A stretch of DNA of 64,000 nt, taken from contig JADGBR010000013.1 in NCBI GenBank assembly GCA_015231405.1, positions 7,222 through 71,221 of the forward strand, written 5' to 3'. Under the pieces are notes generated by a model that worked only from the letters and a program-made list of their open reading frames with translations, ran no database searches and had not been told where the DNA came from. The position numbers were made by a program, and so were the translations under genes. Below are positions 4,117 through 21,308 of the stretch, in pieces. The stretch is from Candidatus Omnitrophota bacterium (lineage in GTDB: Bacteria > Omnitrophota > Gorgyraeia > Tantalellales > Tantalellaceae). How positions within the stretch are numbered: position 1 is the stretch's first letter; the number at the start of each line of letters is the position of its first letter.

Positions 4117-5246
4117 GCTTCACAAAAACCGCTTTATTTTTCCTGTACATCCTCTTATTAGCCGCGGTCTTTTATTTCGCTTTCATATGTTACAGGGCCG
4201 CGGGGCTTTACCATTTCGTGAAGGACACGACGAAAGGGTGGGAGGGGCAGCTTCACCGGATCGACGGGATCCTTGGATACGCGCCTATACCCGGGACCGG
4301 GGGCATAGAGACGGTCCCGGGAGGGGAAAAGGTTCCCGTATGGTATAACTCCGACGGGTTCCGGACCCCGCCCGGGGATAAGGACTCCGGTTCCGGAAAA
4401 AAACCCAGGATGCTTTTCCTGGGATGTTCTTTCACCTTCGGGTCAGGGTGCCGCGCGGAGAAAACTTTTCCGTTCCTCATCGGGGAAAAAATGGACGGAT
4501 CAGTGATCAATGCCGGAGTTAACAGCTACGGGTTCTCTAATATGGTGCTCCGAGCGAGGGAGCTGGTGCCGAAATACAAGCCCGATATCGTTTTCTTCCA
4601 GGTATCGCCTTGGCTTTTCGAAAGGGCCGTAGCTATGTACAGGCCGACGCCGTACTGGACGCTGCCGATGCCGTATTATGCCATGGTGAACGGCAGGAAC
4701 GAGATACAGCCTCCTCCGTTCATGACAGGTATATTCGACGTCCCGATCGCGGGGTTTAGGAAAACGCCGGCCGGTTTATCGGATTTCCTCCAGTTCGCCG
4801 TTAAGGTGGCGGTGCCGCTTTATCTCAGGGACGACTTCTCCCGGTGCTGGACCGGGATCCGTATGGCCGTGGGACTTATTCCCCGGCCTAATACGTCGAA
4901 GAACGGCCTGATACGCGATGTCATCCTGGAAATGAACGCGATATGCAAAGAGAACGGCGCGAAACTGGCCGTTATTTTCCTGGGAGACAGGGATATCTCG
5001 AAAAAGATAAATATCAGCCATGAGAACCGGGATGTTATCATGATAGACGCGGAAAAACCGCTTTGGGACGCGCTTCAGATGAAGACCATGACCGATTACA
5101 GTATGGCTTACCAGCATATCGCAGGGGACCCACCGAAGGTCGTCGACCGTCACCCCAACGATAAAGCGCACGCTATAATAGCTGACGCCGTGTACCGGGC
5201 GCTGCAGGAATATATGTTAAAGATGAAGGCGAAGAAGCAGACTTGA
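4113..5246 (+). CDS. membrane-anchored SGNH/GDSL-like hydrolase
   Basis: N-terminal TM helix; block LFLGCSFTFGSG resembles SGNH block I; ATGA overlap with upstream stop. Confidence 0.5.
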   Translation: MSFTKTALFFLYILLLAAVFYFAFICYRAAGLYHFVKDTTKGWEGQLHRIDGILGYAPIPGTGGIETVPGGEKVPVWYNSDGFRTPPGDKDSGSGKKPRMLFLGCSFTFGSGCRAEKTFPFLIGEKMDGSVINAGVNSYGFSNMVLRARELVPKYKPDIVFFQVSPWLFERAVAMYRPTPYWTLPMPYYAMVNGRNEIQPPPFMTGIFDVPIAGFRKTPAGLSDFLQFAVKVAVPLYLRDDFSRCWTGIRMAVGLIPRPNTSKNGLIRDVILEMNAICKENGAKLAVIFLGDRDISKKINISHENRDVIMIDAEKPLWDALQMKTMTDYSMAYQHIAGDPPKVVDRHPNDKAHAIIADAVYRALQEYMLKMKAKKQT

Positions 5247-5258
5247 GAGAAAAAGAGC

Positions 5259-5352
5259 AGAATACAGAATAACGGATCCAGAATACGGGATATCAACATC
5301 CGGGGAAACAGCATTCTGGATCCTGGATCCTGAGTTCTGTATTCTGTATTCC
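5259..5352. terminator. long imperfect palindrome / terminator-like hairpin between SGNH hydrolase gene and pyk
   Basis: cagaatacagaata...ggatccagaat mirrored by attctggatcctggatcc...tattctgtattctg; no clear T-tract, so terminator function is inferred. Confidence 0.4.
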
Positions 5353-5383
5353 GAACTAAGTATACTAAAATGCAGCATTTTTT

Positions 5384-5413
5384 TGTTTATTATTACGGGT
5401 TTTGTTCTATAAT
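5384..5413 (+). promoter_or_regulatory. sigma70-like promoter candidate for pyk (TTGTTT-18-TATAAT)
   Basis: TATAAT at 5408-5413 with TTGTTT 18 nt upstream in AT-rich intergenic region. Confidence 0.3.
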
Positions 5414-5452
5414 AATTAAATTCAGCCGGCAAGGCTGAAAGCGGGATGCAGT

Positions 5453-6502
5453 ATGTATAAAACCAGGATAGTCGCTACGTTGGGTCCGGCCAGCGCGGAT
5501 TATTCCGTCATCCGGAAAATGACGCTTGCCGGCATGGATGTGGCGAGGCTTAATTTCTCGCACGGCAAAGAGATCGAACACGAGAATAAGATACGGATCA
5601 TCCGTAAGATAAATGATAAATATCGACGGCATATACGCATACTGGGTGATCTTGAAGGCTTTCGCATAAGGATAGGATATCTGAAAGAGCCCGGTTTCAG
5701 GGTTCTTAGGAGATCGGAGCGGGTAACGTTCTTTTTCGGGGAGGACAAAGGATCTCGGTGCGAAATACCGTTCGACTATGACGGGGATTTTAGGACTATT
5801 GCCGCCGGAAAAATGATATACGCGGATGACGGGAACATTGTTTTCAAGGTGCTTAAGAGTTCCGCAAAAAAAGTTATCGCGGAAACCGTAGTTGGCGGGA
5901 CGCTTAAAGAGAGAAAAGGGATCAATATCCCGGAAGCGAAGTTCCCGGGTTCCGGGGTAACGGAAAAGGACGCAAAGGATATAGAGTTCTCTCTGAGGCA
6001 CGGTGTCGATCATATAGCCCAGTCCTTCGTGAGGAGCAAAAAAGATATATTGCGTGTTAGGGAGCTTTTTGGAGGCCGCGGACCCGGTAAAGGCCTTGTG
6101 GCGAAGATAGAGACAAGAGAGGCCATCCGGGATATAGACGGGATAATCGAAGTTTCCGACGGGATAATGATAGCGCGCGGAGATATGGGCGTAGCGGTCC
6201 CGATAAGCATGGTGCCGGTGATACAAAAAGAGATCATCAGGAAATGTAATTACCGCAAGAGATATGTTATAACCGCGACCCAGATGCTGGAGAGTATGAC
6301 GGAACATAGCCGCCCAACGAGGGCCGAAGTAACGGACGTGGCGAACGCGATATTGGACGGGACCGACATGGTCATGTTGTCGGGAGAAACGGCGGTCGGG
6401 AAATACCCGGTCGAGGCGATAAGGACAATGAACGATATTATCGGCGTAGCCGAGGGATATAAAAAAAACAGGGCCGAGACGGTAAAAAGGATATTGGCCT
6501 AA
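5453..6502 (+). CDS. pyk: pyruvate kinase, short form lacking C-terminal regulatory domain
   Basis: [11 protein letters not shown]...LNFSHG start and [16 protein letters not shown] motif; only 349 aa. Confidence 0.8.
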
Positions 6503-6521
6503 AAAAAAGAGGAGAGGGGAT

Positions 6522-6959
6522 ATGATAATGAGATATTTGTTAGTCGCGGTACTTGTTCTAAGCGTTGCGGGGTGCGCCACTCCCAGGAAAAAAGAGACGC
6601 CTAAGTCGGACGTCCAGGTCCTGAAGGAAGAGGTCGGCTCGCTCAAGCAGGAAATGGCTGAAAAGGAAAAAAGGATACAGGAGCTCGAGACCACTAAAGG
6701 TGCCGGGTATTCCGATTACAGCGCCGGCTCAGAAGAGACAAGGACGAGGTCCTATGGTTCAGGTTCCAGCCAGGCTCCGCAGACTGCCAAGAACATCCAG
6801 AAAGCGCTTAAGAATGCGGGTTTTTACAGTGGCGAGATAGACGGTAAGATCGGCAAAGGGACGAGGAAAGCCGTACGGGAATTCCAGGGGTCAGAGGGAT
6901 TAAAAGTCGACGGTATCGTCGGAAAAAAGACCTGGTCCAGACTCCAGTCGTATTTATAA
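6522..6959 (+). CDS. lipoprotein with C-terminal peptidoglycan-binding domain
   Basis: Lipobox LSVAGC; coiled-coil middle; C-terminal PG_binding_1-like LKNAGFYSGEIDGKIGKGTRKAVREFQ. Confidence 0.6.
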   Translation: MIMRYLLVAVLVLSVAGCATPRKKETPKSDVQVLKEEVGSLKQEMAEKEKRIQELETTKGAGYSDYSAGSEETRTRSYGSGSSQAPQTAKNIQKALKNAGFYSGEIDGKIGKGTRKAVREFQGSEGLKVDGIVGKKTWSRLQSYL

Positions 6960-6981
6960 AGGGTCATTGCATTGATCATGA

Positions 6982-7024
6982 GGGTGGGGATGAGTTGTGG
7001 CGAACAACTCATCCCGGTCCCCAC
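6982..7024. terminator. hairpin (terminator-like) downstream of lipoprotein gene
   Basis: ggtggggatgagttg..caactcatcccggtccccac imperfect stem-loop; no U-tract. Confidence 0.35.
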
Positions 7025-7031
7025 AACATGA

Positions 7032-7661
7032 GTGGGGAATAAAATGGGAATCATATCTCTTCTTTTCCACGATCCGGCGGCGTTCCTCATACTTGTGATA
7101 CCGCTTCTGTATTCCGTGATAGCCCACGAAACGGCGCATGGATGGGCGGCGTATCTTTTCGGCGACGATACGGCGAAACGCTCCGGGAGGCTGTCGATCA
7201 ACCCTCTCAGGCACATCGATCCCGTCGGGACAATGGCGCTTGTATTCGTAGGATTCGGTTGGGCCCGCCCCGTGCCGGTCGATTACTCAAAGCTAAGGCC
7301 TTTCAGGCTGGGGCTCATCTGCGTTTCCTCGGCGGGAATATTCGCCAACATACTTATAGCTGCCGGAGCTTTGTACGTTATAAAACTCGAACCCTTGTGG
7401 ATGACGAAAACGCCGGCCGTCATTTTGTCGGTCATGGCAAGGATAAACATTGTACTTGGGGCGTTTAACCTGATACCCATACCTCCGCTCGACGGATCAA
7501 AGATCCTTTTCGGTTTTCTTCCGTCCGCGGCGCAGGATAAATTCATGAGACTGGAACGGTACGGTTTTCCGCTGCTCTTAGTCTTGCTTATCACGGGGGC
7601 TATTGAGCCCCTCATCAAAGTGATTGAGAACGTGATCCTTCATATGTTGCTCGTAAGGTAG
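7032..7661 (+). CDS. M50 family (site-2 protease-like) zinc metalloprotease
   Basis: HETAH zinc motif in TM helix, LSINPLRHIDPVGT motif, multiple TM segments. Confidence 0.7.
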   Translation: MGNKMGIISLLFHDPAAFLILVIPLLYSVIAHETAHGWAAYLFGDDTAKRSGRLSINPLRHIDPVGTMALVFVGFGWARPVPVDYSKLRPFRLGLICVSSAGIFANILIAAGALYVIKLEPLWMTKTPAVILSVMARINIVLGAFNLIPIPPLDGSKILFGFLPSAAQDKFMRLERYGFPLLLVLLITGAIEPLIKVIENVILHMLLVR

Positions 7662-7702
7662 TGCTACTCCCTTTCGGCTGTAGCCGATGACGAATACTAA
7701 AA

Positions 7703-7814
7703 GTGTCAGGCCTCCCCATTGGACATTTTGAGTTAAAGATTAACGCTAATTTGAATATCGGGGTGTAAAAGAGGGACATTAACTCTGGATTTGTCCAATG
7801 GGGAGGCCTGACAC
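7703..7814. repeat. perfect 23-bp inverted repeat with 66-nt AT-rich spacer
   Basis: gtgtcaggcctccccattggaca (7703-7725) is the exact reverse complement of 7792-7814. Confidence 0.6.
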
Positions 7815-7852
7815 CGTTGCTTCTTTTGCCCGGTATGTCTTACTACGCCGCA

Positions 7853-7963
7853 ATGACGAGCCGCCAGGCGTTGGATATCAGGACGGGGAGATCTTCGGTC
7901 AGGAGGTCCATGGCGGGTATGGCAAGCTGGGACTTAGCGCCTGTTCTGAATGAAGCAGCCTAA
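7853..7963 (-). pseudogene. orphan diverged copy of the 3' end (last ~36 codons) of the giant gene 8801-14806
   Basis: About 85% nt identity to 8815-8910; minus strand encodes AASFRTGAKSQLAIPAMDLLTEDLPVLISNAWRLVIAA* versus giant C-terminus ..RTGSKSQLALPAMALLSEDLPGLISAAWRLLISA*; in-frame TAG immediately upstream. Confidence 0.55.
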
Positions 7964-8067
7964 AATAATGGTACATGAGACGCAGCGAGGTGTGGCATAA
8001 TGTTGATCGGGTTATTTAAATGTTTATTGATACGAGATCTTCTCCCGGGAAGCAAGGAGGATGCGAT

Positions 8068-8784
8068 ATGGAATTATTTCGGAACATTTGTGGCTTAGCT
8101 ACTAAAACAATTTCTGATAGATATGATATTTCTATGTTGCAGCAGTTGGAGAAAGTACTGAATCGATCCGGTGTTAGTTTTTTCGGGTCGCGCGAATTCC
8201 TTGATTTTGGATGCGGTACGGGCAGGCTCGCGCAGCTTTTTAGCGGATATATGCCTGACGCGAAATTATACGGTTGTGACGTGAAATCATATCTTGTTAA
8301 ACGGTGCGCGCGCCTGGTCCCGAGGGGCAACTTCTTCGTTAATGGTGTCGTTCCTCCGCTCGACTTGGAGGATGGGAGTGTTGATATGGTCTTTGCGTAT
8401 AGTGTATTTACTCATTTGAAGGAAGACGCGCATATTCAATGGCTGAGGGAGTTTTCCCGAGTATTAAAAAAAGGCGGGTATGCCGTTTTAACCACTCATG
8501 GATATGAGTGTCTTAAACGCATGCGGAAATTCAGCCCCGAAAAGCTGAAGAAATATCAAATAGAGGACTTGGATAATTTCATGGTGCGCAAAGAGCAATA
8601 TTACTGGGTACAGAATCTCCGGAAGGAACCGGATTACGGTCTGGCTGTGATCACTGACAAATATATCAGAGATAATTGGATGAAAGTGTCCGGGATGGAA
8701 TTAAAGGGGTATGAACCCGCCGCGGTAGAGGCATATCCTGAGGGATGCCAGGACTTGGTGATATTGATCAAGGGCAATGGTTAA
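8068..8784 (+). CDS. class I SAM-dependent methyltransferase
   Basis: Motif I LDFGCGTGRL; AT-rich relative to flanks; RBS ggagga before ATG 8068 (ORF also open from 8020). Confidence 0.7.
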   Translation: MELFRNICGLATKTISDRYDISMLQQLEKVLNRSGVSFFGSREFLDFGCGTGRLAQLFSGYMPDAKLYGCDVKSYLVKRCARLVPRGNFFVNGVVPPLDLEDGSVDMVFAYSVFTHLKEDAHIQWLREFSRVLKKGGYAVLTTHGYECLKRMRKFSPEKLKKYQIEDLDNFMVRKEQYYWVQNLRKEPDYGLAVITDKYIRDNWMKVSGMELKGYEPAAVEAYPEGCQDLVILIKGNG

Positions 8785-8800
8785 GCGTGGCCCGGTACCA

Positions 8801-11800
8801 TTAAGCTGAGATAAGCAGGCGCCAGGCGGCGGATATCAGGCCGGGGAGGTCTTCGGATAGGAGGGCCATGGCGGGCAGGGCCAACTGGGACTTCGAGCCT
8901 GTCCGGATGTTATTCAGCCATATTTTCATGATCCCGCAAAGGGTCCACATATCGCGTCCGGGTGTCTTTTCGACCGGGACAGAAAAAGATATTTTATCGT
9001 TGGCTTCATTCCGCAAGCCGTCCCGAAGGTCCTCTGCGGCGCCCGCTTCCAGGGTATCAGTAACGACCAGCAGGTATTCGTTCATTTGCGGATCCATTCC
9101 CGCACAAGCCATCTCGCGCATTACCACCGCCCTGTGAAGTTTGTTGCCCGGGTCAAGCGTTATCCCCTGTCGAGACATGAAAGCCATGACCTCGGCTATT
9201 CTGCCATCGGTGATCGAGAGATCGATCTTTATCCCGTCAAGCCCCAAAGCAAGCCGAAGGCGGTCTTTATCGAGCGCTGTTAAGGGCAGGAGATCGTCCT
9301 CTTGGCCGACGACAAATATCTGCAGGGATATGGGGACCCGAGATCGCGCGAAATATTTTTTGACGGCGCCCAGGGCCAGGGGGATATCCGGCATGGTCTT
9401 AAAAACGGAGACAGGGAGGCATAGACGTAATTTAACCGGGTGTTTTCTTTCCAGATCTTCAGAGAAATCCTGTTTCTGTTCGATTATGGAGCTTTCCAGT
9501 TCCGTTTTACGCGCCGCTTCCGCGAAAGCGTCCGCGGCTTTACCGAAAGCATCGGTCTCGCGGGCATCGACCGTAGCGCGGAATAGCGCCGCTTCGTGAG
9601 TTCCGGACGGAGTAACAATGCCCGGGCCTGGGACTCCCGGTGTTGTGTCCGGGGGTTGTTCCGTTACCGGCCTAAGTGACCGTGTTCCCGCGTGCGGTCT
9701 TCGTGTGCCGGGGATGTCGAATTGTGTCAGGCGGGAACGCCCGGTTCTTTCTCTCTCCATTGGCGGGTTAACGCCAGCGGTTTTTTCGCTTGGAGCCTCT
9801 CCGGATAAGGCGGGTTGAGCGTCGGATATCGCCGGGGCTACTTTTTTAACTGCTTCTTCGGCGAGTTGTTCCAGTGCTTCCATGGAATCCGTGTCTAACA
9901 CCGGTTTACCGTTGACCACATGGATGGCGTACCCTTTTTCCTCGGTAAGCTGTTTTTCGAGCAATTCGTCAAGAGATGTGAACCTGGAGCGGGCGATCTC
10001 GGACAGTAAGTGGTCGACTGCAGCGGCGGATCCGCCCGGCAAAGCCGATAATATACCCTTTAGCTCGCCGGCTATTGTTCCCAGATCTTCGAAAAGTATC
10101 CCGTCCTCGCGTAGAGGATAGAGCCAGCCTTTTTCCCGCATGACGCCGTAAACCTGGCTTGGATCGAGACCGGTTCGGGCGAAAATATCCTTCGGTATGA
10201 CTTTCAGCCTCTCGGAAGACGACACAAGGGTTATGAGCTCGACGTCCCTGGTCTGGCCTATTCCTATCAGGCGGTCGGCGTCGTCAAAATTCATCCAGGG
10301 TCTCGATAGTCTTACCATTGTGGATATATGGAAATCAGCGCCCGGAGCCTGGAATAGGTTCAGCGACTGGCCGAGGAGCCATGTTGTCCCGATAAGGATC
10401 TTCGGAGACATGTCCTTGCGGAAGGCGTCTATGCCCGAGAGGCGGTCCCCTAGCGAAACAGCTTGATTGAGCCCGATAGCCGCGCTGGAACCTGATCTGT
10501 CCAGGTATTTACGATTGTACCTCTCGACGAGTATCTCTATTTCCTCGACGAAATCAACAAGCACAACGACCTTGCCGTTATCTGCGAGACGGTCCTCGAT
10601 TATTTTGTCGAGTTCAAGCACTTTCGGGCAGATTTCCTCCTCGTCCGGGGACCCGTCGGCTTTTTTCGGCAATTTCCCTTCGGGGAGGATAAGCCTTAAG
10701 TCGACGTTCGCTCGGCGCTCGAGGTCGAAACGCCTGAAAATATGAGCGGCAATTTCGGCCTTGTCTTCCCGGGCTTCGCTAGCTTTCCAGGCCGGGAAAT
10801 CGCTGCGCTGCATGGCGATAGTCCTTTCCTGGGCTCTTGACATTGATACGAAACGGGTCTCGGAGATAACGTCGGTAAGCTCCGGGAGTACCTGTTTTCG
10901 TGTCCAGCGGACCATGACGGGCTCGATCGCGAGGAAAAGACGGTCGTTATCCATGCGCTCGAGATATTCGCGCCTGACGTTGTCCGGTGGGACTGTTTCC
11001 CGGGAAGGCGACGGCCCGGCGGTTGGGTGCTCCCGGGGATCATAATCTTTCCGCATCCATAAGAGCGGCTCTATTACATCCGTAGGCCTTTTTACGACCG
11101 GACGCGCGCTGACGCCGATCCGGTATTTTGACGGGATGCCGACAATAACGGGCGCGCGGACAGTCTTATCGCCTTTACGAAGATTTTCCACTTCGTCTAT
11201 TATGTGAGCGTCCGGGGCGAATCGTTTGATGCCGTCTTCTGCGGCGACGATGGCTTCGTAATTGGCGATGAGGATGACCTTCTGGCCGGAAGCGGCAAGG
11301 TTCGCGGCGCGGGACGCCTGCTCGGCGATATTCCCCAGGGAGCTGTCTATAACGTATATTTGATATCCGAGAGCAGGGTCCAGCCTGTCCGCCAGCTCGT
11401 TCGCCCATTCGTATTTGGCCTGGTTCGGCACGGTGACCAGAAGACGGCTGACGTCGTAGGCGCCGTCTTCGGATCTTACATTGAGGGCGGAGAGAGCCGC
11501 GGTTATGGTCTTTCCGGTACGGGCGTCGCTCGCGAACCAGGCGCATCGTTCTTTGGGATCTTCCAGTGTATTTACCGCCTGGGCGACGCTGTAGCGTTGG
11601 TAGGGCATTAGCGGTGCGACTTTGCCGTTATAGCCGCGCGGAACAAAGCCGTGCCATAGCTCGAATTCTTTAAGGATCTCATCCAGTATCTTTTTGGTGA
11701 GCGAGTTCCTGCCGGCAGAGACGGACTCGCGGCTTAACGGCGATAAAGCAGTATTTGCGGAACTGGTCCCGGCTTTCAGCAGAGCGCCGTAGAAGAGGCC

Positions 11801-14800
11801 CCGCCAAAACCGTTTAAGCGCTTTTTCCTTCCGGAGGGCGCTGGAGAGGCCCAGCTCTTCCACTATCCCGGCAAGCATTTTTGATAGGCTGCCGGAAAAT
11901 TCGTCGGACGATATCACCGGGCTTGTAATTTTAGCCTGGTCGGCGATTTCGCGGTAACTGACGGTGAGGATATCGTTAATAGCCTTCTTAGTGAAACGGT
12001 CCCCGAAAAAATAGATGAGCATTTCTCCGAGGGTGCCCTTATCGCACGCGGTCATTTTAATGAAGTCGATGAGGCCGACGCGGCGCATGATCCTGCCAAG
12101 TTCGCCTTCCGCGGCGACGGCCCTGAGGCGGTCTTTTATGACGTTGTCCGGAGCGAGGCTCGAGAAGACCCCGAGAGTGAACCACATCCTCAGTTTTGAA
12201 AGCAGCTTTTTCCGCGCGGTCGATACCGTTTTTAACCGCTCTTCCCAGAGCACGCGGACCGGTTTGTCGGCGTCCGGACCGGGGGCGGACGACTCGTAAT
12301 AAGAGCCGGTGATACCAGCTACATCTTTACCGTTAAGCACATCGGAGAGGATAGCCCTTTGCATGGGATCCTTGAGCCTTATCGCCAGCCATGAATCCAG
12401 CTTAAGGTCTATGACCCGTTCGGGCCTCGGATGGGAACGCCCCGGCCTGTAAGGTTCCGGCAAAAGATCGCTCGTGGATCTGCCCGTGGTAGCAGGGGAT
12501 AATTCCTCTGCGAGGCTGTCCTTATCGGGAAACCCCGCCGTCCTCCGTATTCTTTGCTTAAGTTCCGGGGCTCCGTTCGGTATCGCTTTAAAAAACTCAA
12601 CTGCCTTTATAAGAGCGGTTCGCTCAAGCTTCAGGACATCATCTTCGGGGATCATTAGTAGAGAGCTTATCTCGCCGGACGTCATGAAAGACATATAACT
12701 TCCGGTCTCGATAGGGCCGTATCTAAGGAAAAGTACGCGGGCTTCGGCCGCGGTGAGTTCACGGCATAGACGAGTGAGTTCAAGAGATGTTGCTCTGCTC
12801 GTTACAACGTTTGACGGTATGGGCGCCGAGTCGAGTTCCTGAAGGTCCGCAAAGAGTTCCGCTAAAGCGGCCTCGTTGTGGGGCTTTCTGAGTGCCGCTT
12901 CGGCCTTGAGCTTTATCTGGCTGACACGGGTGGCGGATACGTCTTTGGCAAACTTTTTGCCGATGGTGTCCTGGGGCAACACCTCGAAAGCATCCAGCCC
13001 ATAAGAATGCCGTATCGTTACCCGCTGCTGATAGGTCAATGTTTTGAGGAGCGAGGAGATGCGGGCCGATGTCTTTTCCAGGAGCTTGTCGCGTTCCAGG
13101 GATGCTTGTATGTTATGACCCGAAAGGGAAGCGAGATCCGGGTCGTTCGCGAAGGCATCTTCCAAAGATCCGGCCGAGCGATCAAGGATAATATTTACGA
13201 CAGCCAAAATCTCGGGCGTGGTTTTTAGGAGAGTTTCCCGAATGGCTTCTTCGGGGATTTTGTCGCTTTCGGATAGTTTCAGAGCGATAGGGCCTTCGTA
13301 ATAATCGCCGGGTTCCCTTGTGAGCCTGAGGATCGATGCGAGGATCGTCCCCCAGAGCCTCCCCGAGATATCGCGGGAGCCATCGTCGGCTAAATGATGC
13401 GGGAAGCTTGCCCATTTGGAGGCGATAAGCTTTTCTATGAGTCCGCTCCAAATTTTTCCGTTGTAATACTGGCCGAATGACTTAGGGTTTGGGTCTTTCG
13501 GGTCCGTAATCATCGCATCAAGAGTCCGATATCCTTCAAGGATAGCCTCATCGCGGAAATCGTCTATCGAGTGGTCGGTGTATTTTATCCCGACAAAGGT
13601 ATTGAAAAAATACCGGACCGCGTAGTATGCATCCTCTCCGATCCGAGTGAACGCGGGGGCCGATCTTTCCCCGAGGACCTTAATGGCCTTTTTCCTTATG
13701 ATGACGTGGGAGGAGCGGACAAGCTTAAGGAGGGCCTGATGGCTGAGCCTGCTAAAGTCCTTTTCAAGGAGGCGTTCGCTCTTTCCGGCTTCGACCAGGC
13801 GCGGCGAGTGTTTGATAAGCCGCCGCTGAATGGCATCCACGGTTTTTCTGCGCGCGATGTCCTCGAAGAAAGACCTGCCGAAATAACTGTTAGAACTTTT
13901 GGAGGAGTGCGGCCGGGTTATCATGTAAGTGACGGAGAGGAACCTTTGCTCGGCCGGGCGCAAATTCCGCGCTGAGACGTATTTCCGGTCGACCAGATAT
14001 TTAAGGGTGAACGCCGTCGCGGCTATTTTTCTTACCAGGAGTTTTTCTGCTTCACCGCCGGCTTTAAGCCCGAAAAATTTATCTTGCGGAGCCATGTCCT
14101 CTCCGGGGAATTTGATATTCCCGGCGAGGCCCGATCTTATCTTTTCGTCTTCCGTAAGGTCCGCGAGGAGAGTCGAGGCCGCGCCGCTATTATTATAGGC
14201 GCCACGCGCTATCAAGAGGTCCTTGTATGCCCGGAGCATCCAGGGGATCAGGATACGTTTACTGAGCCTGACGTAATTAGTCCCGTTCTTTTCTTCCATC
14301 CCAATGAGAAGCGTTACAAAATCCGCATAGGTTACTTCACTGACAAGGCCTAAAGGATCGAGGTCGAGATCGGGCACGGTTATGTATTCCGGGGTGTCTT
14401 TACCGGGAACGATAAAGACCTTGACGCCGTTCTTTACCATAAATTCATGATATAAGCCCAGAGGGTTGGCATAGCTGACATGTTTTCTGAGCATGGAATA
14501 GCGAAGGTCCAGATCACGCCCCGGATCATCGATACCCGACCAGACTGCCAAAGTAGCATTATTCGCAGTTTGAGCCAGCCCGGGACCTCCGGAAAACCCA
14601 TCCAAAATATAAACCGCGGCAATGATCGTAGGAAGGAGCCTTCTAAATAACATCGTGGTCTGAAAAAACATAAGCGGTATTGTATCAGAAAGCAGGGATA
14701 AACCAAACTTTATTACGCTTAACGTATTGACTACGCCGAGAATCAGCAGTAGCCTGCGACAGCGCAGAGAGTACGGCAGAATGATCGCGGGGAAAATATT

Positions 14801-14806
14801 TATCAA
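8801..14806 (-). CDS. giant multidomain protein: SNF2-family (SF2) ATPase core preceded by two sigma-70 region-4-like HTH modules
   Basis: 2001-codon ORF. SNF2 motifs LMPYQRY..ASDARTGKTITAALSAL (I), HIIDEVENLRKG (II), GVSARPVVKRPTDVIEPL (III), ..LGQSLNLFQA..GIGQTRDVELITL (V/VI). Sigma r4-like LTYQQRVTIRHSYGLD...ATRVSQIKLKAEAALRK and LTAAEARVLFLRYGP...LKLERTALIKAV. Start uncertain (TTG at 14806; ATGs at codons 46 and 52). Confidence 0.75.
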   Translation of the reverse strand: MINIFPAIILPYSLRCRRLLLILGVVNTLSVIKFGLSLLSDTIPLMFFQTTMLFRRLLPTIIAAVYILDGFSGGPGLAQTANNATLAVWSGIDDPGRDLDLRYSMLRKHVSYANPLGLYHEFMVKNGVKVFIVPGKDTPEYITVPDLDLDPLGLVSEVTYADFVTLLIGMEEKNGTNYVRLSKRILIPWMLRAYKDLLIARGAYNNSGAASTLLADLTEDEKIRSGLAGNIKFPGEDMAPQDKFFGLKAGGEAEKLLVRKIAATAFTLKYLVDRKYVSARNLRPAEQRFLSVTYMITRPHSSKSSNSYFGRSFFEDIARRKTVDAIQRRLIKHSPRLVEAGKSERLLEKDFSRLSHQALLKLVRSSHVIIRKKAIKVLGERSAPAFTRIGEDAYYAVRYFFNTFVGIKYTDHSIDDFRDEAILEGYRTLDAMITDPKDPNPKSFGQYYNGKIWSGLIEKLIASKWASFPHHLADDGSRDISGRLWGTILASILRLTREPGDYYEGPIALKLSESDKIPEEAIRETLLKTTPEILAVVNIILDRSAGSLEDAFANDPDLASLSGHNIQASLERDKLLEKTSARISSLLKTLTYQQRVTIRHSYGLDAFEVLPQDTIGKKFAKDVSATRVSQIKLKAEAALRKPHNEAALAELFADLQELDSAPIPSNVVTSRATSLELTRLCRELTAAEARVLFLRYGPIETGSYMSFMTSGEISSLLMIPEDDVLKLERTALIKAVEFFKAIPNGAPELKQRIRRTAGFPDKDSLAEELSPATTGRSTSDLLPEPYRPGRSHPRPERVIDLKLDSWLAIRLKDPMQRAILSDVLNGKDVAGITGSYYESSAPGPDADKPVRVLWEERLKTVSTARKKLLSKLRMWFTLGVFSSLAPDNVIKDRLRAVAAEGELGRIMRRVGLIDFIKMTACDKGTLGEMLIYFFGDRFTKKAINDILTVSYREIADQAKITSPVISSDEFSGSLSKMLAGIVEELGLSSALRKEKALKRFWRGLFYGALLKAGTSSANTALSPLSRESVSAGRNSLTKKILDEILKEFELWHGFVPRGYNGKVAPLMPYQRYSVAQAVNTLEDPKERCAWFASDARTGKTITAALSALNVRSEDGAYDVSRLLVTVPNQAKYEWANELADRLDPALGYQIYVIDSSLGNIAEQASRAANLAASGQKVILIANYEAIVAAEDGIKRFAPDAHIIDEVENLRKGDKTVRAPVIVGIPSKYRIGVSARPVVKRPTDVIEPLLWMRKDYDPREHPTAGPSPSRETVPPDNVRREYLERMDNDRLFLAIEPVMVRWTRKQVLPELTDVISETRFVSMSRAQERTIAMQRSDFPAWKASEAREDKAEIAAHIFRRFDLERRANVDLRLILPEGKLPKKADGSPDEEEICPKVLELDKIIEDRLADNGKVVVLVDFVEEIEILVERYNRKYLDRSGSSAAIGLNQAVSLGDRLSGIDAFRKDMSPKILIGTTWLLGQSLNLFQAPGADFHISTMVRLSRPWMNFDDADRLIGIGQTRDVELITLVSSSERLKVIPKDIFARTGLDPSQVYGVMREKGWLYPLREDGILFEDLGTIAGELKGILSALPGGSAAAVDHLLSEIARSRFTSLDELLEKQLTEEKGYAIHVVNGKPVLDTDSMEALEQLAEEAVKKVAPAISDAQPALSGEAPSEKTAGVNPPMERERTGRSRLTQFDIPGTRRPHAGTRSLRPVTEQPPDTTPGVPGPGIVTPSGTHEAALFRATVDARETDAFGKAADAFAEAARKTELESSIIEQKQDFSEDLERKHPVKLRLCLPVSVFKTMPDIPLALGAVKKYFARSRVPISLQIFVVGQEDDLLPLTALDKDRLRLALGLDGIKIDLSITDGRIAEVMAFMSRQGITLDPGNKLHRAVVMREMACAGMDPQMNEYLLVVTDTLEAGAAEDLRDGLRNEANDKISFSVPVEKTPGRDMWTLCGIMKIWLNNIRTGSKSQLALPAMALLSEDLPGLISAAWRLLISA

Positions 14807-14937
14807 TTCACTGATTTTTTATGTTGAAGAGTGTCCCTTTTGGGACTGTCCCCTTGGCACCTTCAAGAAACGGTAACAGGTTGCGGCATCGGCGCAAGGC
14901 GTACGGTAAATGAGTATGGCAGTATTCCTGTATTAAG

Positions 14938-14966
14938 TTGACAAACCAGCCGAGTGCATGCATACT
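14938..14966 (+). promoter_or_regulatory. sigma70-like promoter candidate (TTGACA-17-CATACT) for the PC4-like gene, divergent from giant gene
   Basis: TTGACA at 14938-14943, CATACT 17 nt downstream, strong RBS aaggagga before ATG 15012. Confidence 0.35.
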
Positions 14967-15011
14967 TTGAGAGTGAAACTGGAGGGTAAATACTAACTTT
15001 AAGGAGGAGAA

Positions 15012-15245
15012 ATGCCTTACAATGCGGAACTTGATGAAAACATGTTCTCAAAAAGCTGGGAATCGGAAACCGACAGACTGACTGTCAGTATCTACTCATA
15101 CAATCACGGCCAGAAAAAACTTCAGATATCCCGGGAAAGCAAATCCCCTCAGGGCGACCTCAAATTCGCCAAGCTCGGAAGGATGACGAAGGATGAGATA
15201 ACAGCGATCATTCCACTCATACAGGAAGCGATCGGTAATATGTGA
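15012..15245 (+). CDS. PC4-like / YdbC-like ssDNA-binding small protein
   Basis: 77 aa; SKSWESETDRLTVSIYSYNHGQKKLQISRE...LKFAKLGRMTKDE resembles bacterial PC4 (transcriptional coactivator p15) fold family; strong RBS. Confidence 0.45.
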   Translation: MPYNAELDENMFSKSWESETDRLTVSIYSYNHGQKKLQISRESKSPQGDLKFAKLGRMTKDEITAIIPLIQEAIGNM

Positions 15246-15259
15246 GACGCGCTGACAAA

Positions 15260-15988
15260 ATGAGTTCCGTCGCGGACGAAGTCAGGGGAGAATTAAGACT
15301 CCACGCCAGCGAGGAAAAAGCGACGTTGCTCGGAAGGTTCTTCAAAACTGGTCCGGGCGATTACGGTGAGGGGGACGTTTTCATAGGCGTTAAAGTCCCC
15401 GAAACAAGGCGGATAGCCAAGAGATATTTTAAGGCGATCAGGCAGGGCGGGGTCCGGGCGCTCCTCGCCTCGCGCATCCACGAAGAGAGGCTTGCGGCCC
15501 TTATCATGATGGTCCTGCAATTCGAGAAGGGAAGCCCCGAGGGAAAAGAGGATATATACCGTCTATACCTGGCAAGTACCCGCCGCATAAACAATTGGGA
15601 CCTGGTCGACATTTCAGCGGGACAGATCGTCGGGGGATATCTGTTCGACAGGGATCGGGAGATCCTTTATAGATTGGCCTCCTCGGATAATTTATGGGAG
15701 CGCAGAATAGCGGTCATCGCCACTTTTTACTTTATCAGGAAGGGTCAGTACGGCGATACGCTTGGGATATCCGAAAAGCTTCTCGGCGACAGAGAGGACC
15801 TGATACACAAAGCCACCGGGTGGATGCTTCGCGAAACCGGCAAAAGGGATAAGGGAACCCTCGTAAAGTTCATCAAAAAAAACTATAAACAAATGCCGCG
15901 AACAATGCTAAGATATGCGATAGAACTGTTCCCGGAGAAAGAACGACAGATGTATCTTCGCGGGAGATTTGGACCTAAAGGATCATAA
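15260..15988 (+). CDS. DNA alkylation repair protein (AlkD-like HEAT-repeat glycosylase family)
   Basis: FGVKVPETRRIAKRYF...NNWDLVDIS..WMLRE pattern typical of pfam DNA_alkylation; alternative GTG start 15242. Confidence 0.7.
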   Translation: MSSVADEVRGELRLHASEEKATLLGRFFKTGPGDYGEGDVFIGVKVPETRRIAKRYFKAIRQGGVRALLASRIHEERLAALIMMVLQFEKGSPEGKEDIYRLYLASTRRINNWDLVDISAGQIVGGYLFDRDREILYRLASSDNLWERRIAVIATFYFIRKGQYGDTLGISEKLLGDREDLIHKATGWMLRETGKRDKGTLVKFIKKNYKQMPRTMLRYAIELFPEKERQMYLRGRFGPKGS

Positions 15989-16004
15989 ACCCAGGAGAAG
16001 AATC

Positions 16005-16388
16005 GTGAAAAAGCTCATATTTTGTTTTTTTCTTTGTTTTGCGGGGTTCGTCCCGAACGCGATGCCGGAGATGCTTAGCCAGGGAATGAGCCAGGCTGCC
16101 GTCAATGAGATGAGGACCAAGGCTACTGACAATCTGACCCTGGCCAGGGAGTTCACCGGCCGCGGACAGGAGTTATTAAAGACAGGATTGACCAGGGACA
16201 ACCTCAAGATAGCGGGGTATCTCTATATGGAAGCCGGTAAGTTGTACGAACAGTCGAACTTCATATACCAGAAAGTACTCGATAAGGGCTCAGCGCAGAT
16301 GTGCGAGAGCTCCCTGAAGACATGCATAGACGTCGTAAGGCAGTGCAAGCAGAAAGAGATGGAGCTGACGCAGAAAAAACGGCAATGA
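16005..16388 (+). CDS. hypothetical secreted protein
   Basis: GTG start giving signal peptide VKKLIFCFFLCFAGFVPNA; ORF open from 15969. Confidence 0.4.
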   Translation: MKKLIFCFFLCFAGFVPNAMPEMLSQGMSQAAVNEMRTKATDNLTLAREFTGRGQELLKTGLTRDNLKIAGYLYMEAGKLYEQSNFIYQKVLDKGSAQMCESSLKTCIDVVRQCKQKEMELTQKKRQ

Positions 16389-16481
16389 ACGGGGCAGTGA
16401 CAGACCGAATACTCCCATGGCAAATGCCCTGATCTTATTCGTAGCCGGCCTCGCGGCGGGGAAAGAAAGCGAAGGTGAAAG

Positions 16482-17486
16482 ATGAAGCTGGATGTCGGCA
16501 GGGATATCGACAAAGAGATAAAGGAATTCCTCGGGGAGATCAGGGAAAACCCTTACCGCGTCTTCAATGTAGCTTTTTTTCTCATAGGGATCGTTCCTTT
16601 TTCGGTGCTGGTCTTTTTTTTCGCGCGAAACGTGCTCGCCACAGGCGATCTTCCCAAAGGAACGGCTCTTGCCGTCGGCCTTGCCATGATCCTGATGCTC
16701 GCGGGCTATCACACGGGCTATTCGATGCTCCGGAGGATGCTCGCCAAGATAATAGCTTATGGCCTCGTGACTACGAGGAGAGAGAAACAGAAGGCACTGG
16801 CTATACTCGCGGCCTCCCACGAGCTGGGCAACCCGCTTACCAGCATACGGCTCAGCCTCGCGAACATCCTTGACGGTCTTGTCGGCAAGGTGTCCGAGGA
16901 GCAGAAGAATGTCATTTCCATGTGCCACAACGCCGCGGAGAGGATGACGCGGATAACAAAGGTTCTTCTGGATATCATCAAGATAGAGGCCGGGATCATG
17001 GCCCCCGATAGGGGGGCGATAGATATCGCCGGCATAATGAGACAGCAGGCGGTGGAATTCGCAGGCCTTATTGACGGGAAGAAGATCGTTTTTTCGGCGA
17101 ATATACCCGCGGAAGCGTGTACTCTCTGGGCCGACCGCGATATGATAACGCAGGTCGTAAATAACCTTTTCAGCAACGCCGTGAAGTTCACGCCTGAGCG
17201 CGGTCGAATAGACGTGTCCCTGACCCGGAACGAAAAAATGGCCAGGATAGAGGTTGCCGATACCGGTCCGGGCATAGCGCCCGATAAAATGGAGAACATC
17301 TTCGACAAATTCGTTCGGCTGGATAAAACAATACCGGGGAGCGGGCTCGGGCTCGCCATCACCAAGGATATCATAGATCTTCATAAAGGCAAGATAGTCG
17401 TCGTGAGCGAGCCGGGGAAGGGCAGCAGGTTCATTGTTTGTCTGCCGGTGGATATTCGGGATGCAGGCAAGGCGCATGGAGCATAG
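16482..17486 (+). CDS. sensor histidine kinase (2 TM, HisKA + HATPase_c)
   Basis: H-box ASHELGNPLTSI, N/G1/G2 boxes NLFSNAVKFT..DTGPGI..GSGLGLAI; no adjacent response regulator. Confidence 0.8.
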   Translation: MKLDVGRDIDKEIKEFLGEIRENPYRVFNVAFFLIGIVPFSVLVFFFARNVLATGDLPKGTALAVGLAMILMLAGYHTGYSMLRRMLAKIIAYGLVTTRREKQKALAILAASHELGNPLTSIRLSLANILDGLVGKVSEEQKNVISMCHNAAERMTRITKVLLDIIKIEAGIMAPDRGAIDIAGIMRQQAVEFAGLIDGKKIVFSANIPAEACTLWADRDMITQVVNNLFSNAVKFTPERGRIDVSLTRNEKMARIEVADTGPGIAPDKMENIFDKFVRLDKTIPGSGLGLAITKDIIDLHKGKIVVVSEPGKGSRFIVCLPVDIRDAGKAHGA

Positions 17487-17536
17487 AGCACGGAAATAAA
17501 AATTTTATCAGGGATACAGGTCTGCTCCTTGCCAGG

Positions 17537-19075
17537 TTATTTATTGACCGGAGTGATACCCCTCTGTAGAAGCTCTATTATCTTCCCTCTCACGTCACCC
17601 CTGTCGTTAGGGTCCGGCGCCTGGACGTTCGATAGGAAAACACCATAAGCAGATAAAGTGTCGTGATCTAGCTCAGCGGCTTTAGTGTAGTCTGCCATGG
17701 AATTTACGTAGTCCCCGGCCAGGTATCGCGCGAGGCCCCGGGTATAATAAGGTGTGGCTTTCGCGGGATCCAACTCTATGGCTTTATCCGAGTCCGCGAT
17801 GGAATTCTTGAGATCCCCTTTCAGGAAATACGCCCATGCCCTGAAAGCATGAGCTTCCGAGGTGGCCGGGTCTTTCGATATGAGGATATCGTAGTCCGAT
17901 AAAGCCTCGCTAGTCCGGCCCATCGATAAAGATATTTCCGCCCTATATCGGTACGCGGGAACATAATCCGGGTAGAACGATATCGCCTTGCCGCAATAAT
18001 CCAGGGCTTTTTCCATAAGTCCGGCCTCGGTGTATATGTACGCCAGTTTCATATAAACAACGTGGGAGAAAATGAAATTCGGGTCGATTTCAACGGCTCT
18101 TTCGAGATCCTTAATGGCTTTGTCGGTCTCGTTCATGTGGAGATAGGTGACGGCGCGCCCCATATGGTACATCGGGTCGTTCGGGGAGAGCTCTAAGGCT
18201 TTATCAAGATCAGATAAAGCTTTATCGTAAAGCTCAAGCCCGTTAAGAACTGTTCCGCGGGCATAGTAGGATTCGGCCATTAAGGGGTTTTCCGTAACGG
18301 CTCCGGTATACACCTCGACCGCCGAAACGGTATCGCCTTCGCGCTCGAGGATATTGCCAATGGAATAAAGGAAATCGGCCTTTCTGGTCGGGTTCAGGAT
18401 AAGCGCCTTTTTAAGGTCGGCTTTAGCGCTGTCGTATTTTTCTAGTTCGGCTCGGGCCATGGCCCTTTGCCCGAAGAGCTCGAATGAATAAGGATTTTTT
18501 CCTAGGCCGTCCGAAAATTCGCTTTCAGCTAACCCGTACTCTCCGCGTGAGAGAAAGATCCCGCCGCGACCGAGGTATATCTCTTTGTCGATGGATCCGA
18601 GTTCAAGTGCTTTACGGTAATCCTCAAGCGCGGCGTCAAAGTTCAAGAGGCGGGAGTAAGAATAGGCGCGAGAAATGAATGTGGAGGGGTTCCTTGCGTC
18701 CTTGGCGATAGAAAAAGAAAGCTCGTCTATAGCGTTAACATGGTCCCCGGTGATACCGAGTATCTCCCCTATCATTTTGTGGACTCGAGCGTTGTTAGGC
18801 GCGAGGTCCAGGTATCGTTTGAGATCCCGGAGGGCGTTTTGGTACTGGCCGGTCACGCTGTAAGCCGTTCCTCTGAGAAAAAAGGCCCGGGCGTTATTCG
18901 GATCCTTTTCGAGCGCTTTCGATAATATCTTAATGGCCGGTGTCTTGTAGCGGGTGAATTTGGTCAAAATAAAGCCTTCCGCTGTAAGGAAAGGAGAATA
19001 GGCCAGGGAAGCGTATAGGAATAGGCAGGCGAGCAGTATAGAAGCAATAGTGGCGGCGCTCTTCTTGGTTACCAT
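17537..19075 (-). CDS. tetratricopeptide-repeat protein with N-terminal signal/anchor
   Basis: Multiple TPR units (AxxYxxLGxxyxxxGxxxxAIxxyxKALELDP pattern repeated >8 times). Confidence 0.8.
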   Translation of the reverse strand: MVTKKSAATIASILLACLFLYASLAYSPFLTAEGFILTKFTRYKTPAIKILSKALEKDPNNARAFFLRGTAYSVTGQYQNALRDLKRYLDLAPNNARVHKMIGEILGITGDHVNAIDELSFSIAKDARNPSTFISRAYSYSRLLNFDAALEDYRKALELGSIDKEIYLGRGGIFLSRGEYGLAESEFSDGLGKNPYSFELFGQRAMARAELEKYDSAKADLKKALILNPTRKADFLYSIGNILEREGDTVSAVEVYTGAVTENPLMAESYYARGTVLNGLELYDKALSDLDKALELSPNDPMYHMGRAVTYLHMNETDKAIKDLERAVEIDPNFIFSHVVYMKLAYIYTEAGLMEKALDYCGKAISFYPDYVPAYRYRAEISLSMGRTSEALSDYDILISKDPATSEAHAFRAWAYFLKGDLKNSIADSDKAIELDPAKATPYYTRGLARYLAGDYVNSMADYTKAAELDHDTLSAYGVFLSNVQAPDPNDRGDVRGKIIELLQRGITPVNK

Positions 19076-19377
19076 GATAGTAATATAGCACGAAAAAAGC
19101 GACCTGGCAGATAAAATATTGTTTTATTGGATGTCTTTTATCCAGACCTCAAGGACAAAGGGAAGCCTTCTTACCGAATGAAGTTCTTAGAGATAATGGA
19201 ACAGCTCTAGGACGGTAAGCCCGTCGAGACGGCCGACCTCGAGGCGGTGTACGCGTCGTTGCGGGGAAGCTACGCTTTTCAATGGATAAAATAATTACAA
19301 TTTATTAGGCCATTGAGCATAGCCGATCGCAGGATCGTTTGATCTATATTGACGGATAAATTCCGATCACGATTATG

Positions 19378-20787
19378 TTATTCAACGTCCTTGAACTTAA
19401 CGGATCCGATCATGTCAACAGCAAGCTTTTCCTCTTCGGCCAAATTGCCTTTGGGCACTTCCGGATCCGGCGTCTCTCCAATGGGAAAAGTATAACCGAA
19501 ATCCGCAATCAACATTTTATCCTTAACCGGGGTGTAATAAATTTTCCACACGTAACCTTCATTTTTGACAGATGATACCGGATCACTCGCGACAAGAACA
19601 CACTCACCCCATGAATGATCTCTTAAGTTTACGACCTTGATCGATCTTGTCTCAAAAACGCCGTGTTCTTGTTCCAATGACTTCCTGATCAATTCGTTTT
19701 TTTCAAGATTCTCATAACGAATTTTCTTGCCGATATTCTGGTCTGATAGATCTACAGCGCTGAGCTCAAGGCCCAGATCTTTTAGGGGGTGTGAATACAA
19801 TCTCACGGCTATAGTCTGCCCTTTTTGCCTTTTAAAATGAACTAGCGTGTACTCTAATCGCGGAGTTGTTTGCTTGAGCACCCATCTTCCGCTAGGCCTA
19901 TCAAGAGTCACTCCTTCAGGAAAAACTATGGGCGGGCTTATCGTTGCCAGTACCTTTTGGGCAAAAGAATATCCTGTTTTGGAATAAATAAATCTGCCGA
20001 TCTGCGAGATCCAAATACCGCTTAGGGCAATAATCGCTATTATCAAGGCCGCTGCTAATAAGCACCCGGAACGGGATCTGTTGATCGCTTCCGGATCATT
20101 ACCTGGTTCTGTTGCTTTGATCTCCTTTAGCTTGTGATACAACAACACTTGTCCCGCAATTAAAAATGGCATAACAAGCGCCTGAAAGACATTGACTAAA
20201 AATCCGGCTAACTTAGGATGTGTCTTGGTTAATGCTAAAGCTGGAATTGGCGGCAGGAGAAAAGGGAACGAAATGATGGCAAGAAAGCAGCACGTTTTCC
20301 AGAAAAAACCCTTTATGAGTTGACTGCTCATTTTTAATGAGCCGTTCCCTTTACGCCCCTCGATAATTACCGCCAAATCCGACAAACAAAAGATTATTCC
20401 CCAATAAATGCCGGGGATAACAAAAAGCAGCAGACCTGCCAACGATATAAGAAAACAGATAGAAACTACCCCGATCACTCGCCAATATTTCCCCTTAGTT
20501 GCCGTAAAACAATCGGCTACAGCTGTCTCTTCGTTGCGGTATCTCTTTGATGCCGCAATAACCAAAGCGATATAAGCCCATATTCCGATAAAAAGGCTTG
20601 CAGAAGATAAAATAACGCTCAAACTATTGGGAGAGATAGTTTCAAGTAATGCAGGTATTACACCGAGAAGGGAGATCCCAAGAAAAAGACGAAGGTTATT
20701 CCTGAATAGCGTGATCGTTCCTATCAAAAAAACTCTTACATTAAATTTCTGATCGGCCGGCTGACGAGGACCAATGTCTGTATTCAT
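19378..20787 (-). CDS. hypothetical polytopic membrane protein with C-terminal soluble domain (AT-rich gene)
   Basis: About 8 predicted TM helices; GC clearly below flanks; no recognisable catalytic motif. Confidence 0.5.
   Translation of the reverse strand: MNTDIGPRQPADQKFNVRVFLIGTITLFRNNLRLFLGISLLGVIPALLETISPNSLSVILSSASLFIGIWAYIALVIAASKRYRNEETAVADCFTATKGKYWRVIGVVSICFLISLAGLLLFVIPGIYWGIIFCLSDLAVIIEGRKGNGSLKMSSQLIKGFFWKTCCFLAIISFPFLLPPIPALALTKTHPKLAGFLVNVFQALVMPFLIAGQVLLYHKLKEIKATEPGNDPEAINRSRSGCLLAAALIIAIIALSGIWISQIGRFIYSKTGYSFAQKVLATISPPIVFPEGVTLDRPSGRWVLKQTTPRLEYTLVHFKRQKGQTIAVRLYSHPLKDLGLELSAVDLSDQNIGKKIRYENLEKNELIRKSLEQEHGVFETRSIKVVNLRDHSWGECVLVASDPVSSVKNEGYVWKIYYTPVKDKMLIADFGYTFPIGETPDPEVPKGNLAEEEKLAVDMIGSVKFKDVE

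Positions 20788-21218: not shown

Positions 21219-21308
<90 letters not shown>

Follow-up and report, generated by a model that had tools for sequence, protein, structure and literature searches.

A sigma-70-like module joined to a divergent SNF2 ATPase in a large protein of the Omnitrophota

Introduction

A gene for a protein of 2001 codons was analysed in a 64,000-nucleotide stretch of DNA from an uncultured Candidatus Omnitrophota bacterium (assembly GCA_015231405.1, contig JADGBR010000013.1, positions 7,222 to 71,221), which is referred to below as the window. The gene lies at 8801..14806 on the minus strand, and its product combines a sigma-70-like module, further helix-turn-helix (HTH) domains and an SNF2-family ATPase. 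To our knowledge, RapA is the only well-studied bacterial SNF2 protein acting on RNA polymerase, and it competes with sigma as a polypeptide of its own. Moreover, among bacterial sigma factors we know only of sigma-54, through its AAA+ activators, as needing ATP for starting transcription. A lineage-conserved fusion of a sigma-70-type module with SNF2 would be a test case for whether a translocase can be coupled directly to promoter recognition or to polymerase recycling, and it would also bear on how the ultra-small, possibly predatory Omnitrophota organise transcription.

Coding region and domain organisation

The gene is a single uninterrupted open reading frame (ORF) of 2001 codons from a TTG, plus a stop codon, as described in the first-pass annotation of the window. 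At the NCBI the same gene is modelled as HQL30_06730, a hypothetical protein of 1950 amino acids from a Candidatus Omnitrophica metagenome-assembled genome (MAG), which is 100% identical and starts at M52 (MLFRRLL; ATG at 14653). Codon-usage log-odds were calculated in 200-codon windows after training on the other genes of the 64-kb window; frame 0 was positive in 13 of 13 windows along the ORF, with the lowest score in the linker at residues 1661-1789, and the other two frames were strongly negative. Because of this uniform signal the ORF is taken to be real and is one continuous coding region. Its guanine-cytosine (GC) content is ordinary for the window.

The doubt expressed earlier about the annotated TTG start was justified. 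The only in-frame candidates are TTG1, ATG46 and ATG52, none of them has a Shine-Dalgarno motif, and since about half of the other genes in the window likewise have none, this motif cannot choose among the three; the start is accordingly uncertain, with M52 being the NCBI choice. A scan for promoters and terminators around the gene gave sites no more numerous than in shuffled sequence. Both of the N-terminal hydrophobic segments noted at first pass are present, one at residues 19-37, before M52 (listed below as 17-40), and the signal-peptide-like one at residues 52-80. The parts of the protein were assigned as follows (positions in the window, strand, description).

8801..14806 (-): whole ORF, 2001 codons from TTG plus stop
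14687..14758 (-): hydrophobic segment, residues 17-40 (Kyte-Doolittle 1.93), in the protein only if the TTG start is used
14567..14653 (-): signal-peptide-like N-terminus, residues 52-80 (MLFRR, LLPTIIAAVYIL, ..GLA/QT), read from the sequence
13745..14566 (-): variable N-terminal region, residues 81-354, without Pfam match or similarity to relatives
12857..13744 (-): sigma-70-like module, residues ~355-650, with region 2, a region-3-like stretch and region 4 at 573-650
12587..12841 (-): second sigma region-4-like HTH, residues 656-740 (NCBIfam SigD and cyanobacterial RpoD models at 656-734)
12152..12409 (-): third probable HTH and 'LR.WFTLG' helix, residues 800-885, from conservation; LuxR/region-4-like by eye
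11615..12151 (-): conserved helical region before the ATPase, residues 886-1064, aligned in 11 of the 12 sequences of profile A1 (see below)
10214..11614 (-): divergent SNF2 ATPase, both lobes, residues 1065-1531, from Pfam, phrog_62 and profile A1
9827..10213 (-): insertion specific to this protein, residues 1532-1597, then conserved post-ATPase helices, residues 1598-1660, from alignments
9440..9826 (-): Pro/Gly/Thr-rich linker, residues 1661-1789, probably disordered, from composition
8804..9439 (-): C-terminal alpha/beta domain, residues 1790-2001, ending ...LLISA, from homology to the C-terminus of the relative P0053

The SNF2 ATPase

The assignment to the SNF2 family made at first pass was upheld. 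Pfam SNF2-rel_dom (PF00176), the profile proposed there as SNF2_N, matches residues 1091-1348 with 40.7 bits against a curated threshold of 24.9, and also matches seven of 13 sequence pieces from relatives at E<=1e-4. The best ATPase match is the phage helicase family phrog_62 (residues 1037-1486, E=1.5e-23). All of the motifs that had been quoted as a complete SNF2 set were located where they had been placed, namely LMPYQ at residues 1066-1070, DARTGKT at 1094-1100, IIDEVENLRK at 1202-1211, SARPVVKRP at 1233-1241 and GIGQTRDVELITL at 1515-1527, the five together spanning 11.61-10.23 kb. The set is nevertheless not quite complete, as motif VI is without its second arginine and Pfam Helicase_C, which had been expected within residues ~1060-1580, gave no match in the protein at E<=1, nor on the isolated second lobe at E<=10.

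Searching the PDB with the protein alone by phmmer gave only E values of about 0.2, and of about 0.3 for ISWI, so that family profiles were needed. Profile A1, a profile of the core, was built from 12 family sequences. It aligned with the Sulfolobus SNF2 structure 1z63 (E=3.3e-14) from motif II as far as the end of the ATPase, through both lobes and into the post-ATPase segment (residues 1532-1660), and with 1z5z, the isolated second lobe of the Sulfolobus SNF2 (E=8.5e-9). Further PDB matches of A1 were Ino80, ISWI, CHD1L and Fun30, and the helical connector at residues 886-1064 had no PDB match in this search.

All 12 A1 sequences have the Walker A K/T of GKT, the D-E of motif II and the first arginine of motif VI without variation. 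Motif VI reads DRLIGIGQ in the protein versus the canonical DRAHRIGQ (family consensus DRL.GIGQ), and its second arginine is replaced in 12 of 12 aligned members by G, M, Q, P or T. Judged by profiles and motifs, the ATPase is a genuine, very divergent SNF2 branch, and it probably still hydrolyses ATP.

The sigma-70-like module and HTH domains

About 1050 residues upstream of the ATPase were initially left unassigned. Sigma-70-like regions 2-4 and extra HTHs were found there, and residues 81-354 and 886-1064 are still without assignment. NCBIfam sigma-factor models match residues 573-650 and 656-734 (E 1e-7 to 2e-9). Profile A2, which was prepared from residues 338-883 and seven relatives, matched primary sigma factors with E=1.7e-22, and the alignment runs colinearly from region 2.2 (DLIQEG opposite DFxQEA) across region 3 as far as the C-terminal end of region 4. 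In the protein itself DDFRDEA (residues 415-421) takes the position of DLIQEG in region 2. The sigma-2 and sigma-4 folds were recovered for the module; both the sigma-70 region 4 HTH and region 2, with the core-binding 2.1-2.2 helices, are present. Readings of the alignment by eye indicate that the equivalent of tyrosine Y430 (E. coli numbering) is kept and that, in region 4.2, the protein has retained the counterparts of R586 and Q589, and P0002 those of E585, R586, R588 and Q589.

The second region-4-like HTH was also found in P0002. The third HTH with its 'LR.WFTLG' helix is kept in most aligned relatives and is helical in the structural model, with predicted local distance difference test (pLDDT) values of 72-90. 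The conserved core accordingly comprises sigma-70-like regions 2, 3 and 4, one or two further HTH domains of region-4/LuxR type, the helical connector and the ATPase.

A family with a constant core

Relatives (P numbers; L numbers denote loci) were collected by an exhaustive HMMER search with residues 451-1650 as query, which returned 95 proteins at E<=1e-3, 27 at <=1e-10 and 18 at <=1e-30. The strong matches comprise nine full-length proteins of 1,403-7,647 amino acids and fragments from short contigs; the weaker matches that were scanned (>=573 amino acids) are canonical SNF2-rel_dom plus Helicase_C proteins. The family was revealed by this search and not by word-indexed homologue searches, which yielded nothing beyond the query, P0005 and one distant SNF2 protein, whether started from the full protein, from profile A1 or from the C-terminal domain (A3). 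BLAST mapping located the conserved parts at residues ~355-654, ~858-1531 and ~1598-1660 and the parts not common to relatives at residues 52-354 and ~1680-2001. Profile A2 found the sigma-like module in eight relatives with a strong match and in P0011 with a weak one, and the order sigma, HTH, SNF2 is common to most aligned family members.

All ten clusters that were looked up are singletons named hypothetical, SNF2-related or DEAD/DEAH box helicase, in line with the first-pass statement that this is not a described bacterial family. The named sources are Omnitrophota MAGs except for a 6-kb contig, which was binned as Myxococcaceae, and a single MAG with the label Elusimicrobia, and four further loci come from Joint Genome Institute (JGI) metagenomes. 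A search of 2.9 million viral contigs yielded no relative, and phage and plasmid records gave only generic SNF2 matches of ~24% identity. By these comparisons the protein is a member of a small, almost entirely Omnitrophota family with a constant core of sigma-like module, HTH and SNF2 and with interchangeable ends. The domain kinds are known and their conserved sigma-SNF2 fusion is undescribed; in the literature no paper was found on such a fusion or on the GGIDL tail mentioned below.

Among the relatives, enzymes are found fused to the core, namely NAD synthase, NAPRTase, NUDIX, inositol monophosphatase, a phosphoenolpyruvate (PEP)-utilising domain and HAD. The ORF 3614-21931 (+) of L007, which is identical in L008, encodes more than 6,106 amino acids with the sigma-SNF2 core at residues ~2088-2876, and continues into CN_hydrolase plus NAD synthase (E=1.5e-63), an NadD-like cytidylyltransferase, NUDIX and NAPRTase.

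Some other features of the relatives were recorded during inspection. The L007 ORF begins with a canonical-looking signal peptide and ends in 'GLAMDYCVG', which is nicotinamidase/isochorismatase-like by eye. In the C-terminal half of P0003 (= L001), after the sigma-SNF2 core, an internal twin-arginine-like hydrophobic segment RREFLWGLVGGGLAAVGTGLGAGAL and a lytic-transglycosylase-like motif GESRQVEGEALGRFQIQ were seen by eye. A tail of ~60 amino acids, 'GGIDL...(I/V)xPVxNLPxLLGL', ends P0004, P0005, P0009, P0010, P0015, P0017 and P0020 and also occurs on an unrelated neighbour protein, L005 5154-7637; from its sequence it resembles a sorting or anchoring tag. The N-terminal domain of P0010, of ~370 amino acids, consists of a signal peptide followed by 'ELILPxPG...WVNLSPYEK', and it is carried with 47-50% identity by the products of L005 5154-7637 and 12314-13885, which flank P0010 on both sides, as a local paralogue expansion of an unannotated domain.

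Comparison with known systems

The protein shares with group 1/2 sigma-70 factors (SigA/RpoD, cyanobacterial SigD) the colinear family profile from region 2.2 to the end of region 4 and the recovered folds. It differs from them in that the module stands inside a 2001-residue protein, region 4 is duplicated, the protein itself stays below Pfam thresholds, the family is without the region 2.3 tryptophan pair and most of the -10-reading residues of region 2.3/2.4 are not conserved.

The best structural-sequence relatives of the ATPase are archaeal and eukaryotic SNF2 proteins (Sulfolobus Sso1653 1z63, ISWI, Ino80, Mot1), and it is therefore expected to be a double-stranded DNA translocase that displaces DNA-bound proteins. 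Mot1 removes TBP and is the nearest functional analogy. However, identity to these proteins is very low, and the ATPase lacks a Helicase_C match, the second motif VI arginine and the accessory domains of the remodellers.

The likeness to RapA/HepA lies in an SNF2-family motor that is expected to work on RNA polymerase. RapA occupies the tip of the beta flap in competition with sigma; it binds core and not holoenzyme because the two sites overlap, and the flap-tip helix contacts both the RapA ATPase core and sigma region 4 (PMC8501970). A region-4 tether would put the motor of the present protein at the same place. There is, however, no homology beyond the superfamily: no RapA chain was among the PDB matches of A1 at E<=1 and no RapA model among the NCBIfam matches at E<=1, and archaeal and eukaryotic SNF2s were matched instead. 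Furthermore, docking would use the sigma-like module and not the RapA N-terminal domain, and the members of the family are 2-8 times larger.

With the giant proteins of the Omnitrophota the family shares the phylum, the modular build and the signal-peptide-like N-termini, and its members of up to 7,647 amino acids fuse metabolic enzymes. The described giants (West-Roberts et al. 2023 preprint; 2026 complete-genome preprint) are >10,000-30,000 amino acids long and have SecA-DEAD domains and numerous transmembrane helices, and SNF2 and sigma are mentioned in neither preprint. In contrast to the Archaeovorin/Dockerin-type giants, the present protein has 2,001 amino acids, at most one or two N-terminal hydrophobic segments and no SecA match in Pfam. 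Polyvalent proteins of phages and conjugative elements are likewise large and multidomain, and the full text on them mentions SNF2 22 times (Iyer et al. 2017, PMC5512222). The gene studied here differs in its chromosomal, housekeeping context, in that searches of viral contigs, phages and plasmids found no relatives, and in the lack of detected methylase, nuclease or ParB-type modules.

Proposed function

A role of the protein in transcription is likely. The first-pass annotation had suggested a DNA/transcription role from neighbouring genes; the role itself is retained, and the evidence for it is the sigma-like module. To the proposal that the protein is an RNA-polymerase-docking SNF2 remodeller, RapA-like in its logic without being a RapA relative, we give about an even chance. 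It builds on the identities of the domains, their order, the retention of this order across most of the aligned family and the kept ATP-binding and hydrolysis residues. The sigma-like module would dock on core RNA polymerase, region 2 contacting the beta-prime clamp helices and region 4 the beta flap tip. Duplex DNA would be held by the HTH domains, and the SNF2 motor would translocate on this duplex, spending ATP on remodelling of the polymerase-DNA complex. The most likely action would be dislodging or recycling of stalled or post-termination polymerase, or help in DNA opening at sites selected by the HTHs. The N- and C-terminal parts would serve as exchangeable accessory modules, and the site of action would most likely be the producer's own cytoplasm, possibly with membrane tethering through the N-terminal hydrophobic segment. 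The protein also shows that nucleic-acid machinery occurs among the long proteins of the Omnitrophota, and not only the surface and cell-wall modules that have been stressed so far.

Several points weigh against this proposal. The evidence is computational throughout, and the binding of RNA polymerase is predicted from sequence likeness. The Sigma70_r4 match proposed at first pass is found at residues 586-641 but stays below threshold (18 vs 24.1 bits), and Pfam Sigma70_r2 gave no match in the protein. The tryptophan pair of region 2.3 wedges promoter DNA open; by eye it is lost in every family member, the WW of STYATWWIRQ being GK in the protein and non-aromatic in nearly all relatives, and a classical sigma function of the module is doubtful for this reason. 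ATPase activity could be weak because motif VI is without its second arginine. Moreover, Omnitrophota fuse unrelated modules into long ORFs, and physical linkage is therefore weaker evidence of functional linkage than in most bacteria. Signal-peptide-like N-termini, with a positively charged start, 12-17 hydrophobic residues and small residues at the predicted cleavage site, were read from the sequences of the protein, P0002, P0006, P0010, P0011, P0053, L007 and L009, and internal transmembrane hairpins occur in some members. Being positive on the N-side, these recurrent N-termini would predict export by the positive-inside rule, which does not suit a cytoplasmic ATP-dependent role, as an enzyme that needs ATP is useful only in a place supplied with it. 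The same conflict is pointed out in publications on the long proteins of Omnitrophota (West-Roberts et al. 2023 preprint; 2026 complete-genome preprint), and the family sharpens this paradox with signal-peptide-bearing proteins full of ATP-dependent cytoplasmic enzymes.

Alternative explanations

Given these N-termini, the protein could be an exported effector with a genuine Sec-type signal, whose sigma-like module captures the core RNA polymerase of a prey or host while SNF2 strips or redirects it. This would fit the description of Omnitrophota as ultra-small predators whose long proteins, nearly all of them with a signal peptide or transmembrane helices, are interpreted as extracellular effectors, and also the sorting-tag-like GGIDL...NLPxLLGL tail on many relatives and unrelated neighbouring proteins. 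The signal call, however, was made by reading of the sequence only, no secretion or injection genes lie nearby, one relative has a complete NAD-salvage pathway within its polypeptide, something one would expect a cell to retain, and even in the giant-gene paper its authors describe some of the predicted extracellular locations as 'highly unlikely'; on balance we consider export rather unlikely. Since the melting tryptophans are lost, ATP-driven promoter opening is conceivable. An ATP-powered sigma factor, in which SNF2 supplies the opening force in place of the tryptophan wedge, or, should the signal peptide be real, an injected effector that seizes prey RNA polymerase, is judged improbable; if true, the powered sigma would be a bacterial counterpart of the TFIIH/XPB-driven promoter melting of eukaryotes. 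It is equally improbable that the ORF is a polyprotein or concatenation of independent modules that were fused by Omnitrophota habit, are perhaps cleaved after translation and have no joint mechanism. The interchangeable terminal regions, the unrelated enzymes fused to the core in relatives, the long low-complexity linkers between modules (residues 741-799 and 1661-1789) and the proposal in the literature of peptidase domains that might cleave giant proteins would all suit it. On the other hand, in the complete members that were examined, sigma, HTH, helical connector and SNF2 remain next to one another in an unchanged order whereas their surroundings change, which is the constant-core pattern of a co-evolving functional unit, and the exhaustive search gave no stand-alone protein of this ATPase subfamily, short-contig fragments aside.

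An anti-phage or anti-plasmid defence protein was also considered, as the best ATPase match is to the phage family phrog_62, the family is fast diverging with a patchy distribution, and NCBIfam gave weak matches with MzaA (E=0.02) and with a phospholipase-D protein of anti-phage type (E=0.065). DISARM and BREX contain ATPases of the SNF2 type, and MzaA is a sigma-70-family protein associated with the MZA anti-phage system. Nevertheless, 0 families were returned at E<=1 from PADLOC-DB, the gene has no conserved nuclease, methylase or partner gene in its vicinity, the window has no mobile-element context around the gene, and the viral, phage and plasmid searches gave none but generic matches; a defence, phage or plasmid origin was accordingly rejected as very unlikely. 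That the ORF is an artefact, either a chimera of the assembly or a pseudo-ORF made up of two genes, is scarcely credible. Its source is indeed a MAG and its start codon is uncertain, but the uniform coding signal, the repetition of the sigma and SNF2 module order in at least ten independent assemblies from different studies and the alignment of P0002 without a break to residues 371-1584 all speak against the assembly-error fusion that had been raised as a concern at first pass.

Terminal regions and neighbouring genes

Residues 52-354 have no Pfam match and no similarity to any relative. For the C-terminal domain (residues 1790-2001) the one homologous sequence is the C-terminus of P0053 (E=1.8e-5), a canonical-SNF2 Omnitrophota giant. 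The AlphaFold model of this domain, made from two sequences, has a pLDDT of 52, and Foldseek matches to NAD synthetase, OtsA and class I tRNA synthetases at template modelling (TM) scores of 0.3-0.4 form a non-specific Rossmann-like mixture that was treated as uninformative. A sigma-like stretch after the ATPase of P0053, suggested by eye, was confirmed neither by profile A2 nor by PDB search and was dropped. Endings of the type '...xSA-COOH' are found in the protein (LLISA, 8804-8818) and in P0002, P0006, P0011, P0012 and P0021, the forms in the family being LLISA, LIQSA, FAQSA, IAISA, LALSA and LRSA; they may be a conserved C-terminal signal.

The gene is surrounded by those for YicC, Gmk, CoaBC, pyruvate kinase, a peptidoglycan-binding protein, an M50 peptidase, an adjacent S-adenosylmethionine (SAM) methyltransferase of the small-molecule type, AlkD, a histidine kinase and a tetratricopeptide (TPR) protein. 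Of the two neighbours to which significance was attached at first pass, AlkD was substantiated (PF08713, E=3.9e-64), whereas the 'PC4-like' ORF of 77 amino acids at 15012-15245 (+), which has a strong Shine-Dalgarno motif and is divergent from the gene, found no Pfam or PDB support. No conserved neighbourhood was detected in L002, L005, L006 or L010, where the neighbours are all different (amino-acid permease, GH18, UDP-glucose dehydrogenase, ribosomal protein S2 and others). As the flanking genes are housekeeping and differ at each related locus, synteny gives no functional clue, contrary to the role once read from the neighbourhood, and synteny with the methyltransferase, for which a search had been suggested, is not conserved.

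Two genes from the gene under study, at 7032-7661 (+), lies a small Peptidase_M50 (site-2-protease family) gene that was not seen next to relatives. Site-2-protease-type M50 peptidases elsewhere release membrane-tethered sigma or anti-sigma factors; a link to the sigma-like module is speculative. In a run of small unannotated genes, an ORF of 121 amino acids at 3216-3581 (+) weakly matches Rap1a immunity protein (E=2.5e-4, below threshold). Further along the window, where annotation reaches up to 25 kb, a run of ~30 same-strand genes at 21492-58211 (+), the first being GDP-mannose dehydratase/epimerase and GNAT acetyltransferase, looks by gene arrangement like a polysaccharide-type cluster.

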